From the NCBI GenBank assembly GCA_964509645.1, contig CAZDXV010000001.1, forward strand, positions 15,890-79,889: a DNA stretch of 64,000 nucleotides, written 5' to 3'. Of the stretch, positions 22,609 through 26,108 are shown one piece after another. Made by a program: the position numbers and the translations under genes. Source of the DNA: an uncultured Candidatus Saccharibacteria bacterium. GTDB taxonomy: Bacteria; Patescibacteriota; Minisyncoccia; Minisyncoccales; GWA2-38-27. The notes beneath the pieces were generated by a model that ran no database searches, had not been told where the DNA came from, and saw only the letters and a program-made list of their open reading frames with translations. Numbering within the stretch: position 1 is the stretch's first letter; the number at the start of each line of letters is the position of its first letter.

Positions 22609-23067
22609 ATGGATTTTGAAAGAAAATCTTTTCTTGCCAATATAGATTATAAGGAAATACTGTCTTTTTTCCTTATTTTCCTTGCTTTGGCTGTAGTTGT
22701 TCTTCAGCTTACAGACAGAGTGGATATAAATAAATTTACAGCAGAGGTTTACAACAATCTCGCTTTTTTGCTTCCCGGAGCTTCTTCTAAAACAGAAGAG
22801 CTTTTTGAAGAGAGCGCAATCTTTAATATTAATTTAGAGGCTCTGGAAAAGAACAATGCCGAAATGGAAGCTGAAGTTTCTCAAGGAGTTAATCTTCAGG
22901 AAAAAGTCGGAAAAAAAGAAAACCCCGTTCAAAAGTCTCAGACAGAGCAGATGAGAGACAAAGTAAAAGAGCTTAGGAATGAAATAACTGTTCTCCAGCT
23001 TGAGCTTAATCAAACTCAAAAGAGGGTAAACGGCCTTCAAGAGAGAATAAATCAGCTTCAAAGCTGA
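22609..23067 (+). CDS. hypothetical single-pass membrane protein with C-terminal coiled coil (FtsB/DivIC-like architecture)
   Basis: TM ILSFFLIFLALAVVVL, then heptad-rich KVKELRNEITVLQLELNQTQKRVNGLQERINQLQS. Confidence 0.4.
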   Translation: MDFERKSFLANIDYKEILSFFLIFLALAVVVLQLTDRVDINKFTAEVYNNLAFLLPGASSKTEELFEESAIFNINLEALEKNNAEMEAEVSQGVNLQEKVGKKENPVQKSQTEQMRDKVKELRNEITVLQLELNQTQKRVNGLQERINQLQS

Positions 23068-23663: not shown

Positions 23664-23774
23664 CGGTTCCAAAAAAGCTCCTGACAAAGGAGCTTTTTAT
23701 TACTTTTCCACAGTTTTACTTTTTTATTCTTTTGATATAGAATAATTAAATTAGGTTCAACTAATTGTTTTTTT

Positions 23775-24386
23775 ATGAACAAAAAAGAGCTTACAGATTT
23801 AACTAACAAGGTTTACAAAATTACCCTGCTTTTCCCAAAAAAGGATCCTTTAAGGTATAAGGTAAGAGAAAAAGCAAATGATCTTTTGGCCGGTTTTGTT
23901 GCTTGGGAAAGCTATTGCAGTCCGAATCCGGGAAGCATTTTGGGAACTAAAAAAGATGAAAGAGAAATTCTTTTTTCTTTGGAAAAAGATTTTGATATAA
24001 TAAGAAGCTATTTTGAGGTAGCCAAATGGCAGAACTGGGTAAACTATTTTGACATATTGGAGCTTCAGGAAGACTATGATAAGATAAAGGGAGCGTTGAA
24101 AGAAGAAATAGGAAAGCTTAAAAAAGACAGTCCGAAAGGGGAAGAGCTTAAAAAGGTTAAAACAGAGCAGGTTGTGGAGGAAGATTTAGATGGAAGAAAA
24201 GGAGAAATAATCAAGATTCTTAAAAAGGTTAACAGGATTCAAGTCGGAGAAATTACAGATCTTCTTCCAAGTGTCTCCAAAAGAACTTTAAGGCGTGATT
24301 TCCATAAATTAGTGGAGCAGGGGACAGTTGAAAGGGTAGGAGACAAAAACAACACCTTTTACAGGTTAAGAAATAAAGAAGTATAG
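23775..24386 (+). CDS. four-helix-bundle (23S rRNA-IVS/Avd-like) N-terminal domain fused to C-terminal winged-HTH DNA-binding domain
   Basis: N-terminus LTNKVYKITLLFPKKDPLRYKVREKANDLLAGFVAW matches the FPKxE(R)y...niaEG four-helix-bundle family pattern. C-terminus EITDLLPSVSKRTLRRDFHKLVEQGTVERVG is DeoR/wHTH-like. Confidence 0.45.
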   Translation: MNKKELTDLTNKVYKITLLFPKKDPLRYKVREKANDLLAGFVAWESYCSPNPGSILGTKKDEREILFSLEKDFDIIRSYFEVAKWQNWVNYFDILELQEDYDKIKGALKEEIGKLKKDSPKGEELKKVKTEQVVEEDLDGRKGEIIKILKKVNRIQVGEITDLLPSVSKRTLRRDFHKLVEQGTVERVGDKNNTFYRLRNKEV

Positions 24387-24470
24387 CAGGACAGAGTAGG
24401 ACAGATAGTAGGACAGAATATCTTTTGTTTCTGTCCTAACTGTCCTAACCTCTGTCTTAATTGTCCTAAT
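24387..24470. repeat. array of seven ~10-bp TTAGGACAGA units: three direct (24388-24417) and four inverted (24430-24467) at ~10-12-bp phasing, forming a large imperfect palindrome that ends 3 nt before the ECF sigma start codon
   Basis: Read directly: cAGGACAGAg tAGGACAGAt agtAGGACAGAa then tatcttttgtt, then TCTGTCCTaa CTGTCCTaa cctCTGTCTTaa TTGTCCTaa. Confidence 0.75.
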
Positions 24471-24472
24471 AA

Positions 24473-24988
24473 ATGGCAAACCCTAAAAAAACATTCAGTA
24501 AGCTGTACGATAAAAACATCGATCAAATATATCGGTTTATTTACTTTAAAGTAGAATCTGAGGAAATAGCTCAGGATATATGCGCTGAAGCCTTTACTCG
24601 GGGATGGGAAGCTTTTAAAGAAAAGCATGATCAAATAGACAATCCCAGAGCTTTTCTGTATCGGATAGCCCATAACCTTGTAGCTGACCATCATAAAGCT
24701 AGGACAAGGGTAGAGTTTGTTTCTGTTGAAAATATTTCCTTGTCCGATCCGGATACTGACATAAAAGAAATGTCCGAAGTTAATTCTGACTTTAACAATA
24801 TTAAAAAAGCTCTGGAGGGGATAAATGAGGACTATAAAGAGATTATAGTGATGCACTATTTAAATGATCTTCAAATACCCGAAATAGCTCAAGCTTTAGA
24901 TAAATCAGAAGGAGCTGTAAGGGTCCAACTTCACCGGGCTATTAAATCTTTGAGAAAAACCCTTGAAAAAAATATAGAAATGTGCTAA
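24473..24988 (+). CDS. ECF-type RNA polymerase sigma-70 family factor
   Basis: Region 2 FTRGWEAFKEKHD...FLYRIAHNLVADHHKARTR and region 4 HTH EIIVMHYLNDLQIPEIAQALDKSEGAVRVQLHRAIKSLR; 171 aa. Confidence 0.85.
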   Translation: MANPKKTFSKLYDKNIDQIYRFIYFKVESEEIAQDICAEAFTRGWEAFKEKHDQIDNPRAFLYRIAHNLVADHHKARTRVEFVSVENISLSDPDTDIKEMSEVNSDFNNIKKALEGINEDYKEIIVMHYLNDLQIPEIAQALDKSEGAVRVQLHRAIKSLRKTLEKNIEMC

Positions 24989-24989
24989 T

Positions 24990-25745
24990 TTGTGGGGTGT
25001 AACAAAAAGCCCTTTATTTCGTCATAACTATACAATGGAGGACAAAAAGCTTCTCAACGAGTTAAAGCAACTAAAAGAGATTAAACCCAGAAAAGACTGG
25101 GTTAGTTTGACTAAAAAAGAGATTTTAGGCGAAAATCCTTCTATTTTCAGTATAGAAGAGCTTATTTTAGGAGCTAAAATGGTTTTAAGGCATAAAGCCG
25201 CTTTTTCTTCTCTAGTTGTTCTTCTTGTTATTATAGGAACTTTCGGCTTTGCTCAGAATTCAATGCCGGGAGATATGTTTTTTAGTATTAAGAAAGCGGG
25301 AGAAAAGGGAATGAGTATTTTTGCCTCAGACAAAGTAGAAAGGAGTTTTGATATAGCAAACAAAAGATTAGAGGAGTTAACCCTCATATCCCATCAGAAT
25401 AATATAGATAAGCTGGCTCCAGCCATAGAAGAATATCAGACTTCAGTCTCTGAAACGGCAGAAAGCATAAAAAGGGAAGCGGAATCAGGCTCTGCGGACA
25501 AGCTGGCTAGAGAAATAGAGGTTTTAGCTTCAAAAAGAGTAGAACTGGAGGAAGAAGGAGTTGAAATACCCCAAAACGAGTCATATAACGCAGCTATGGG
25601 GAGGTTATTGAAAAGAGAGGTAGCAGATCTTGAAAACAGGTCTTTGATTGAAGAAAATGTTTCTGTTTTAAAAGAAGTTAAAGAGCTGATTGAAGAAGGC
25701 AAATTGGATCAGGCTTTTGTAAAGCTGATGAGCATTAAAAACTAG
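24990..25745 (+). CDS. single-pass membrane protein with DUF5667-like extracytoplasmic helical domain (candidate anti-sigma factor); probable start at 25035
   Basis: Immediately follows the sigma gene. TM SLVVLLVIIGTFGF and a long helical C-terminal domain, the sigma-adjacent architecture common in CPR. Likely start is MEDKKLL at 25035. Confidence 0.45.
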   Translation: MWGVTKSPLFRHNYTMEDKKLLNELKQLKEIKPRKDWVSLTKKEILGENPSIFSIEELILGAKMVLRHKAAFSSLVVLLVIIGTFGFAQNSMPGDMFFSIKKAGEKGMSIFASDKVERSFDIANKRLEELTLISHQNNIDKLAPAIEEYQTSVSETAESIKREAESGSADKLAREIEVLASKRVELEEEGVEIPQNESYNAAMGRLLKREVADLENRSLIEENVSVLKEVKELIEEGKLDQAFVKLMSIKN

Positions 25746-25769
25746 TTGAGTTTTCCACATTGACATTAT

Positions 25770-25796
25770 TATAGGACTGGTATAATGAAAGAATAT
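25770..25796 (+). promoter_or_regulatory. strong promoter with -35 TTGACA and extended -10 (TGgTATAAT)
   Basis: TTGACA at 25770-25775; cTGGTATAAT at 25788-25796 (spacer 15 nt, compensated by the TG extension). Confidence 0.5.
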
Positions 25797-25802
25797 TTGT
25801 AT

Positions 25803-26108
25803 TAATCCGCCGCAGTTCTATTTGATACCAAAAATATCAGATAGTCTCGCGGGTTGAAAAAGTCGTTGTTTTCTTGATTTTTTGAGTATTGGGCCCATGC
25901 ACTATAAGGTGCATAGGGTAAACAGAAAGGTTCTGTTAACTCGCACCTGTATGGTGCAAACCGCCTCGCAAGAGGCAGCCAAAAATATTTATACTCAAAA
26001 GTTCGAGACAAGGTCGACGACGACACATTATAAAAGGTCAAAAAAAGTTAAATAATTATCAACTGAAGATCGACAGATTAAAAGGTTGGTAATTACACAT
26101 TACAAATC
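25803..26108 (+). promoter_or_regulatory. ~300-nt structured 5' leader upstream of the putative S-layer gene, with several hairpins including a GNRA (GCAA) tetraloop stem
   Basis: Locally GC-rich. Hairpins atgcac-tataag-gtgcat (25897-25914), aacag-aaaggtt-ctgtt, gcacc-tgtat-ggtgc, gcctc-GCAA-gaggc (25963-25976). No forward ORF. Confidence 0.4.

Follow-up and report, generated by a model that had tools for sequence, protein, structure and literature searches.

The 64-kb stretch of DNA analysed here (the window) contains a module of three consecutive forward-strand genes, encoding a 203-aa protein with a winged helix-turn-helix (wHTH) domain, an ECF-type sigma factor and a DUF5667 membrane protein. 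The 84-base gap between the first two genes (region 24387-24470) holds seven units of the TAGGACA type, located at 24387-24468, of which five are exact and two carry one mismatch. The features of the locus are as follows.

23672-23698, forward strand: intrinsic terminator (stem and T-run, from a terminator scan) that ends the preceding transcription unit
23704-23743, forward strand: promoter-like region of the HTH gene, TTTTCCACA and then TTTACT-17-TAGAAT (23715-23743), from a consensus scan; putative function
23775-24386, forward strand: gene of the candidate regulator, 203 aa, four-helix bundle and DeoR-type winged HTH (Pfam, AF2, Foldseek)
24387-24393, forward strand: unit 1, CAGGACA, one mismatch, abutting the stop codon of the HTH gene
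24397-24403, forward strand: unit 2, TAGGACA, exact
24409-24415, forward strand: unit 3, TAGGACA, exact
24416-24431, no strand assigned: central spacer, 16 bp, A/T-rich, which parts the direct and inverted arms; predicted hairpin loop
24432-24438, reverse strand: unit 4, exact, TAGGACA when read on the bottom strand (top strand TGTCCTA)
24441-24447, reverse strand: unit 5, TGTCCTA, exact
24453-24459, reverse strand: unit 6, TGTCTTA, one mismatch
24462-24468, reverse strand: unit 7, TGTCCTA, exact, ending 4 nt 5' of the sigma ATG
24473-24988, forward strand: gene of an ECF-type sigma factor of 171 aa (Pfam, NCBIfam), the presumed target of regulation
24990-25745, forward strand: DUF5667 membrane protein, presumed anti-sigma partner (Pfam DUF5667, E 1.7e-9), the conserved third gene of the module

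The array extends from the TAG stop codon of the HTH gene (24384-24386) up to 4 nt before the sigma ATG (24473), and consists of three direct units, read on the top strand, followed by four inverted ones, read on the bottom strand. The order on the top strand is CAGGACA gag TAGGACA gatag TAGGACA gaatatcttttgtttc TGTCCTA ac TGTCCTA acctc TGTCTTA at TGTCCTA ataa ATG, which gives start-to-start distances of 10, 12, 23, 9, 12 and 9 and a spacing of 9-12 bp within the arms. Exact TAGGACA/TGTCCTA words occur 12 times in the 64-kb window, five of them inside the 84-nt gap, and no second TAGGACA cluster was found in the window. The level expected by chance, taken from 300 first-order Markov simulations of the window, was a maximum of two units in any 84-nt stretch. 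Both the sequence and the simulations therefore confirm the original prediction of seven repeats, three direct and four inverted, filling the whole intergenic gap. The predicted unit of about 10 bp, TTAGGACAGA, proved too long, since relatives keep only the 7-mer TAGGACA and the flanking GA/TT is specific to the clade. The predicted span from stop codon to start codon holds: the gap is filled, and the last unit ends 4 nt before the ATG.

The sigma protein matches Sigma70_r2 and r4_2 in Pfam and sigma70-ECF in NCBIfam (88 bits); its N-terminus is conserved in orthologs from the ATG at 24473, and an exact look-up of the protein matched no record. The true start of the DUF5667 gene may lie a few codons 3' of 24990. 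A consensus scan found neither a sigma70-like promoter nor a terminator inside the gap, and the promoter-like block of the HTH gene is conserved in loci L002 and L003. In orthologs the terminator at 23672-23698 retains its hairpin while its stem sequence has changed, even between close orthologs, and for this reason it serves as an internal control for the evolution of a purely structural hairpin.

Shine-Dalgarno-like sequences are absent before the genes of the window (ORFs of at least 250 aa, e.g. those at 2522, 7447 and 35348), so that a sigma start lacking one is normal here. The regions upstream of window genes are A/T-rich, several having TATAAT-like hexamers that abut the ATG, and initiation in window genes may be Shine-Dalgarno-independent or leaderless. 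The 9-mer TTTTCCACA is found just 5' of the -35 element at two promoters, that of the HTH gene (23704-23712) and that of a candidate structured RNA described below (25751-25759). L002 and L003 keep the 9-mer at both promoters, and it could be a common upstream promoter element or a factor site.

Conservation and architecture of the array in Patescibacteria

Homologs of the 203-aa protein form 257 clusters, all within Patescibacteria. The two closest (77% and 74% identity) retain the gene order HTH-sigma-DUF5667; their arrays, of 3+3 and 2+3 units, are built from the TAGGACA/TGTCCTA words of the window but have different spacers. The central spacer has kept its length, but not its sequence, in L002 and L003. 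When species-representative genomes were searched with the family alignment, 80 loci were recovered, which belong to Nealsonbacteria, Paceibacterota and further Patescibacteria. Of the 80, 78 were analysable, and in all 78 the same sigma ortholog lies directly 3' of the HTH gene.

An unbiased count of 7-mers in the 78 HTH-sigma gaps ranked TAGGACA/TGTCCTA first; it was found in 66 of them and was enriched 133-fold (191 in 5,450 gap positions versus 142 in 543,698 background positions). The k-mers ranked next were either overlaps of the same unit or parts of an alternating TATATA tract. At least one exact unit lies within 120 nt of the sigma ATG in 67 of the 78 loci, compared with 2.3% of control windows from the same loci, and at least two are present in 59 loci, compared with 0.3% of control windows. 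Among the 11 loci that have no exact unit within this distance, some have units elsewhere, e.g. inside the sigma gene. The unit sequence is kept down to 36% identity of the HTH protein.

JGI metagenomes were scanned for the tight palindrome GGTAGGACA-N0-4-TGTCCTACC, which returned 120 stretches, 80 of them listed. Among the matches listed, 41 of the 80 are situated exactly between a homolog of the HTH gene and a homolog of the sigma gene, and the others belong mostly to GC-rich unrelated organisms or are hairpins followed by T-runs. The palindrome matches outside the module provided no evidence of a wider regulon in the metagenomes. The identical palindrome, as GGTAGGACA-(A/T)3-TGTCCTACC, is conserved in GC-rich bacteria (GC 0.57-0.65) at L089 1762-1782, at L121 8015-8035 and at about ten similar metagenome loci. 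There it precedes the gene of a membrane protein whose C-terminus is cupredoxin-like (..FYCxxPGHxxAGMxGTLxVEP), and it probably serves as operator for an unrelated regulator.

Conservation upstream of sigma orthologs, which the original prediction had proposed to check, was observed in 67 of the 78 loci, and the array is not part of a dispersed repeat or MITE, being the sole cluster in the 64-kb window and syntenic in orthologs. Since the motif precedes sigma orthologs and is not dispersed, neither of the observations that the original prediction had named as speaking against it was made.

Arrays elsewhere in the family contain from 0 to 6 exact units and vary in number, orientation and spacers, the largest being found in the clade of the window. 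The commonest layouts are ++- (20 loci), +- (14 loci) and +-- (7 loci), and about ten loci have direct units only. A typical array of a distant relative has the form GGTAGGACA-TACATATATA..-GGTAGGACA-N1-3-TGTCCTACC. The commonest core is a tight palindrome with 0-3 nt between the half-sites, which is, judged by its sequence, the signature of a symmetric DNA-binding dimer. The distance between units of the same orientation is 9-13, 19-24 or 26-30 bp and hardly ever 14-18 bp, and the spacings of the family cluster near 10, 21 and 31 bp. Because these same-orientation spacings are periodic across relatives, helical phasing is a property of the family. The convergent pairs are spaced by 8-10, 22-25 and 33-37 bp (about 9.5, 23 and 35), which is not a clean 10.5-bp series.

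The position of the array relative to the two genes also follows a pattern. In many loci a unit opens with the TAG stop codon of the HTH gene. At the other end, 4-9 nt separate the last unit from the sigma ATG in the window and about 16 related loci, and across all loci this distance ranges from 4 to 144 nt. Where no gap exists and the HTH stop overlaps the sigma start, the units are found either upstream of the HTH gene (L048, L057, L073, L075, L061 and L063) or inside the last 40-60 nt of its coding sequence (L016, L051, L063 and L032).

Several variations on this architecture were observed. An alternating pyrimidine-purine tract, TACATATATA(TA), is located between the first direct unit and the palindrome in, e.g., L040, L043, L046, L047, L054 and L062, and is missing from the array of the window; it may act as a flexible or bendable spacer, and the wHTH model also matches Z-alpha and DsrD. 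One subclade has an intragenic site, TAGGACA-N14-TGTCCTA, in the codons of sigma region 4.2 (D/G-R-T-E-x-A-T-R-V-L), at L027 5107-5134, L036 5039-5066, L049 5028-5055, L066 5155-5182, L073 4989-5016 and L080 1131-1158; the sigma gene of the window is without it. The codons cgT GTC CTA are used in 13 of about 28 loci with R-V-L, and T AGG ACA in 9 of 12 loci with R-T, while the codons between the half-sites are synonymously variable. This codon usage suggests that the intragenic site is under selection, including at loci without gap units (L049, L080).

A second tight palindrome, TAGGACAnnTGTCCTAcc, was found at L008 104-119 and L009 3248-3263, upstream of a gene for a membrane-anchored coiled-coil protein that directly precedes the HTH gene. 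Since TAGGACAnnTGTCCTAcc thereby precedes a coiled-coil-protein/HTH operon, the regulator gene of these two loci may itself be behind a site. A similar coiled-coil ORF exists in the window at 22609-23067, with no unit near it.

The candidate regulator and its relation to known systems

The 203-aa protein contains a Pfam HTH_DeoR domain (PF08220) at aa 141-188 (E 1.2e-8, 35 bits against a cut-off of 21), and its residues 1-130 have no Pfam match. The AF2 model, built with 26 homologs as input (pLDDT 76.6), has four long helices at aa 3-118, a disordered linker and a winged HTH at aa 140-198. In Foldseek comparisons with the PDB, the N-terminal bundle gave 2GSC and 2RLD as top matches, with TM(target) of 0.73-0.81 and rmsd of 1.9-2.4 A over about 110 residues; the E-values are weak, all at least 1e-3 (1e-3 to 6e-2 for the bundle). 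The C-terminal domain matches the wHTH proteins DsrD, MarR, AspA and Z-alpha, and its recognition helix SKRTLRRDF (SKRT[LI]RRDF) is invariant in the 26 homologs.

The proteins 2GSC and 2RLD, each with five chains per entry, are 23S rRNA IVS / S23 ribosomal proteins, on which the N-terminal 118 aa superpose. The profile of the 23S-IVS family (PF05635) had no Pfam match in the 203-aa protein at E <= 0.01, and a profile search of PDB sequences gave neither a significant relative nor a PF05635 member. In the model the protein shares the four-helix-bundle fold of the 23S-IVS family but lacks the sequence signature of that family. The known 23S-IVS proteins are stand-alone, without a DNA-binding domain, whereas the bundle here is joined to a wHTH. 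The DGR accessory protein Avd belongs to the same fold family. Avd forms a pentameric barrel (PMC6182149).

With the DeoR family (E. coli DeoR/GlpR, L. lactis FruR, C. glutamicum SugR) the 203-aa protein shares the HTH_DeoR winged helix. The HTH is C-terminal here and N-terminal in the DeoR family; Pfam detects no DeoRC domain, a four-helix bundle taking the place of the sugar-phosphate sensor; and the NCBIfam matches are to the HTH only and far below cut-off. The protein consequently has the HTH domain of the DeoR family without the architecture of its members. The targets differ as well, DeoR acting on sugar catabolic operons and the presumed target here being a sigma factor. The sites bound by DeoR-type HTH proteins are palindromes or sets of four repeats (PMC2222622).

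The closest functional analogy to the array is the Fur box. Fur represses the ECF sigma genes fecI and pvdS, so in both cases a repressor site would be placed at an ECF sigma gene, repression being proposed for the present locus. Fur boxes are arrays of GATAAT hexamers in forward-forward-reverse order, tolerant in orientation and number, of which about three are needed (PMC7536154). The short unit of 6-7 bp, the forward-forward-reverse order and the addition of units in longer operators are common to both. Fur belongs to another protein family and its unit has another sequence, and no metal-sensing domain is evident in the 203-aa protein. Moreover, Fur hexamers are contiguous, while TAGGACA units are 9-12 or about 21 bp apart, and, unlike Fur sites, the array lies between the stop codon of the regulator's own gene and the start of the sigma gene.

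The locus resembles autoregulated ECF modules in that a sigma gene and a membrane protein gene (DUF5667) are adjacent, and differs from them in the strictly linked wHTH gene and in the presence of a repeat array in place of a recognisable -35/-10 ECF promoter. Plasmid and phage iterons, which are direct repeats of 17-22 bp accompanied by a rep gene and an A/T-rich unwinding region, were considered and rejected: the units are 7 bp long and of mixed orientation, and the neighbours of the array are a regulator and a sigma factor.

No description of the TAGGACA module or motif was found in the literature searched, and searches on DUF5667 with sigma, on ECF with Parcubacteria and on four-helix bundle with HTH found nothing relevant; the lineages concerned go unmentioned in the main text of the ECF re-classification paper.

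Proposed mode of action and alternative readings

The array is probably an operator of TAGGACA units to which the 203-aa protein binds, limiting expression of the sigma/anti-sigma pair. As far as the sequence comparisons go, it is most likely the candidate binding site of the HTH protein and a switch of the sigma factor of a kind not yet described. Sequence-conserved inverted half-sites at orthologous loci beside a regulator gene, as expected of a repressor operator, are present. The suggestion made earlier of a phased site of the cooperative-regulator type, tied to the sigma/anti-sigma pair, agrees with the periodic same-orientation spacing and with the linkage in 78 of 78 loci. The 203-aa protein is taken as the binder because its gene is the only DNA-binding one that travels with the site and because its recognition helix is invariant, like the unit. 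The upstream wHTH protein, always encoded next to the array, was already named as a possible repressor in the original prediction and is, from these comparisons, the obvious candidate binder. Since unit and recognition helix are both invariant in all loci retrieved, no covariation of specificity links the protein to the site, and another conserved factor could bind it.

According to the proposed mechanism, each unit would be contacted by one winged-helix domain of the protein encoded immediately upstream, in which the four-helix bundle, fused to the DeoR-type wHTH, would serve as the oligomerisation domain. Convergent units (TAGGACA...TGTCCTA) would be recognised by symmetric pairs of subunits, and further units one or two helical turns away would be filled cooperatively; in the organism of the window the array would have grown from the usual two or three units to seven. 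The occupied array would limit transcription into the ECF sigma and anti-sigma genes, most likely as an intra-operon roadblock to RNA polymerase arriving from the HTH gene's own promoter (23715-23743), and occlusion of a weak internal start site may contribute too. By either route the regulator would set the amounts of sigma and anti-sigma. Roadblock or occlusion is the simplest assumption, since the gap has no recognisable promoter, the promoter block of the HTH gene is conserved and units can lie inside coding sequence; a gap in which the scan found neither promoter nor terminator, together with that block, is compatible with co-transcription and a roadblock. The choices of repression over activation and of roadblock over occlusion are guesses.

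A more far-reaching version of this proposal, based on the structural model, is a conceivable but doubtful one. The 203-aa protein would then be a new type of transcription factor, whose Avd/23S-IVS-like bundle would bring several, perhaps five, winged-helix domains together in one particle, wrap helically phased arrays and form a roadblock behind its own gene. This would make up a self-contained circuit, found throughout Patescibacteria, that gates the ECF sigma/anti-sigma module. The roadblock sites of such a particle could lie in the gap, near the end of the HTH coding sequence or in the sigma gene. By analogy, a pentameric assembly as in Avd would explain phased arrays of many units, and if the bundle oligomerises like Avd, this would be the first DNA-regulatory role for a fold family of otherwise unknown function.

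Convergent units also fold at the RNA level, and the top strand is predicted to form a hairpin of -40.3 kcal/mol (z -5.8) spanning 24388-24458. It is accordingly conceivable, though unlikely, that the element acts in a read-through transcript, where the hairpin would attenuate, mark a processing site or hinder the 30S at the SD-less sigma start, uncoupling sigma from the HTH gene. Besides the predicted stability, the short distance (4-9 nt) between last unit and AUG in the window and about 16 relatives points in this direction, as do the arrangement of three direct and four inverted units, which in a slipped register could pair the AUG-adjacent unit, and the SD-less genes of the window, whose initiation may need an unstructured leader. 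However, the AUG is outside the stem in both the MFE and centroid structures, no T-run follows the stem and nothing resembling a terminator was reported for the gap by the scan. The distance between last unit and ATG varies from 4 to 144 nt, some palindromes have only 0-2 nt between half-sites, and at least 6-10 direct-only arrays (L026, L028, L053, L060, L064 and L067) are unable to fold. The stem sequence is invariant in very divergent genomes and shows no compensatory changes, unlike the neighbouring terminator: the units do not vary among genomes whose proteins are 36-45% identical, and the spacers are not complementary between the arms. Nor does the element match an Rfam family, a search of 22.5-26.5 kb at E <= 1 having given only sub-threshold miRNA-like hairpin matches for the array. 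Invariant words, direct-only arrays and abutting half-sites are to be expected if a symmetric protein reads the sequence of double-stranded DNA. Of the claim that an mRNA hairpin sequesters the sigma start, the predicted hairpin stands, but it leaves the AUG outside the stem and is not conserved, direct-only orthologs being unable to fold. An RNA-level contribution may exist alongside protein binding, because convergent units necessarily yield an RNA hairpin. The imperfect palindromic look might also suggest a MITE or other dispersed repeat, an intrinsic terminator or a low-complexity tract due to chance, all of them very unlikely given that the array is the only cluster in 64 kb, that the simulations never reach three units per 84 nt, that the array is syntenic in orthologs and not mobile, and that it has no T-run. 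For the terminator in particular, the stem is followed by AATTGTCCTAATAA and not by a T-run, its sequence is conserved and not covarying, and the scan reports none.

The units could alternatively constitute the autoregulatory promoter of the ECF sigma factor, with a GGAC-like -35 and a GTC-like -10 element. ECF sigma genes are commonly autoregulated, and the central pair AGGACA-N15/16-TGTCCT of the window clade and its neighbours is loosely like GGAAC-N16-GTC; in compact loci the motif precedes the whole HTH-sigma operon, where an autoregulated promoter is expected, and the gap has no other conserved motif. This identity is nevertheless improbable, since the commonest layout, a palindrome of 0-3 nt with an extra direct unit, lacks the -35/N16-17/-10 geometry, nothing is conserved at a fixed distance 3' of the palindrome, and the AAC-to-GTC distance between alternate TGTCCTAAC units is 12-13 nt instead of 16-17. 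Unit orientation and number vary, some units are inside coding sequence, and the sigma 4.2 helix is variable (RVQ/M/L/T-LHRA) while the unit is invariant. The array thus lacks the single orientation and the 16-17 nt spacer that define an ECF promoter (-35 ..AAC, -10 CGT/GTC), and the resemblance to ECF -35/-10 elements noted originally does not hold. A unit serving as a sigma70 -35 element (xxGACA), with a -10 element 16-17 nt downstream, fits L073 only and is not general. About equally improbable is binding by a different, unlinked DNA-binding protein, with the adjacent HTH gene as a bystander. The same 18-nt palindrome occurs in unrelated GC-rich bacteria that do not have this HTH protein, e.g. 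before the cupredoxin-like membrane proteins; against this stand the about 120 independent loci in which the site is strictly adjacent to the HTH gene, the use of the HTH stop codon TAG as the first three unit bases in many loci, and the small number of regulators encoded by Patescibacterial genomes.

An operator bound by the 203-aa protein, the preferred reading, is in kind an operator for a helix-turn-helix protein and so not a new principle; what would be unusual for the operator array of a wHTH regulator is the architecture of the regulator and the placement. The genomes of Patescibacteria (CPR) are tiny and encode few regulators, and to our knowledge hardly any of their cis-elements have been defined by experiment. 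The locus offers a concrete conserved circuit: a 7-bp word with its arrangement in arrays, a candidate binder whose domains are fused in an unusual way, and the ECF sigma and anti-sigma genes as target. This circuit is shared by about a hundred or more uncultured lineages and provides an entry point into gene regulation of organisms that cannot be grown alone.

A structured RNA candidate beside the module

The non-coding region 25746-26108, located between the anti-sigma gene and a gene for a PG_binding surface protein, resembles a conserved structured RNA or leader of about 320 nt. Counterparts are present at L002 5975-6317, L003 5955-6273 and L082 6094-6411. Three genomes share the region with 87% identity, the flanking proteins having 74-77%, and a distant relative has it as well (nhmmer E 1.5e-65). 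The region starts with a near-consensus sigma70 promoter (TTGACA at 25760-25765, TGgTATAAT at 25779-25786), the spacer of which includes a one-mismatch unit, TAGGACT, at 25772-25778; this word is also found in L003, is replaced by TAAGACT in L002, and may be due to chance. No Rfam family matches the region. Its predicted fold has an energy of -108 kcal/mol (z -8.4), with seven predicted pairs that show compensatory changes, and on these sequence features the region is a candidate for a new structured RNA or a long 5' leader linked to the module.
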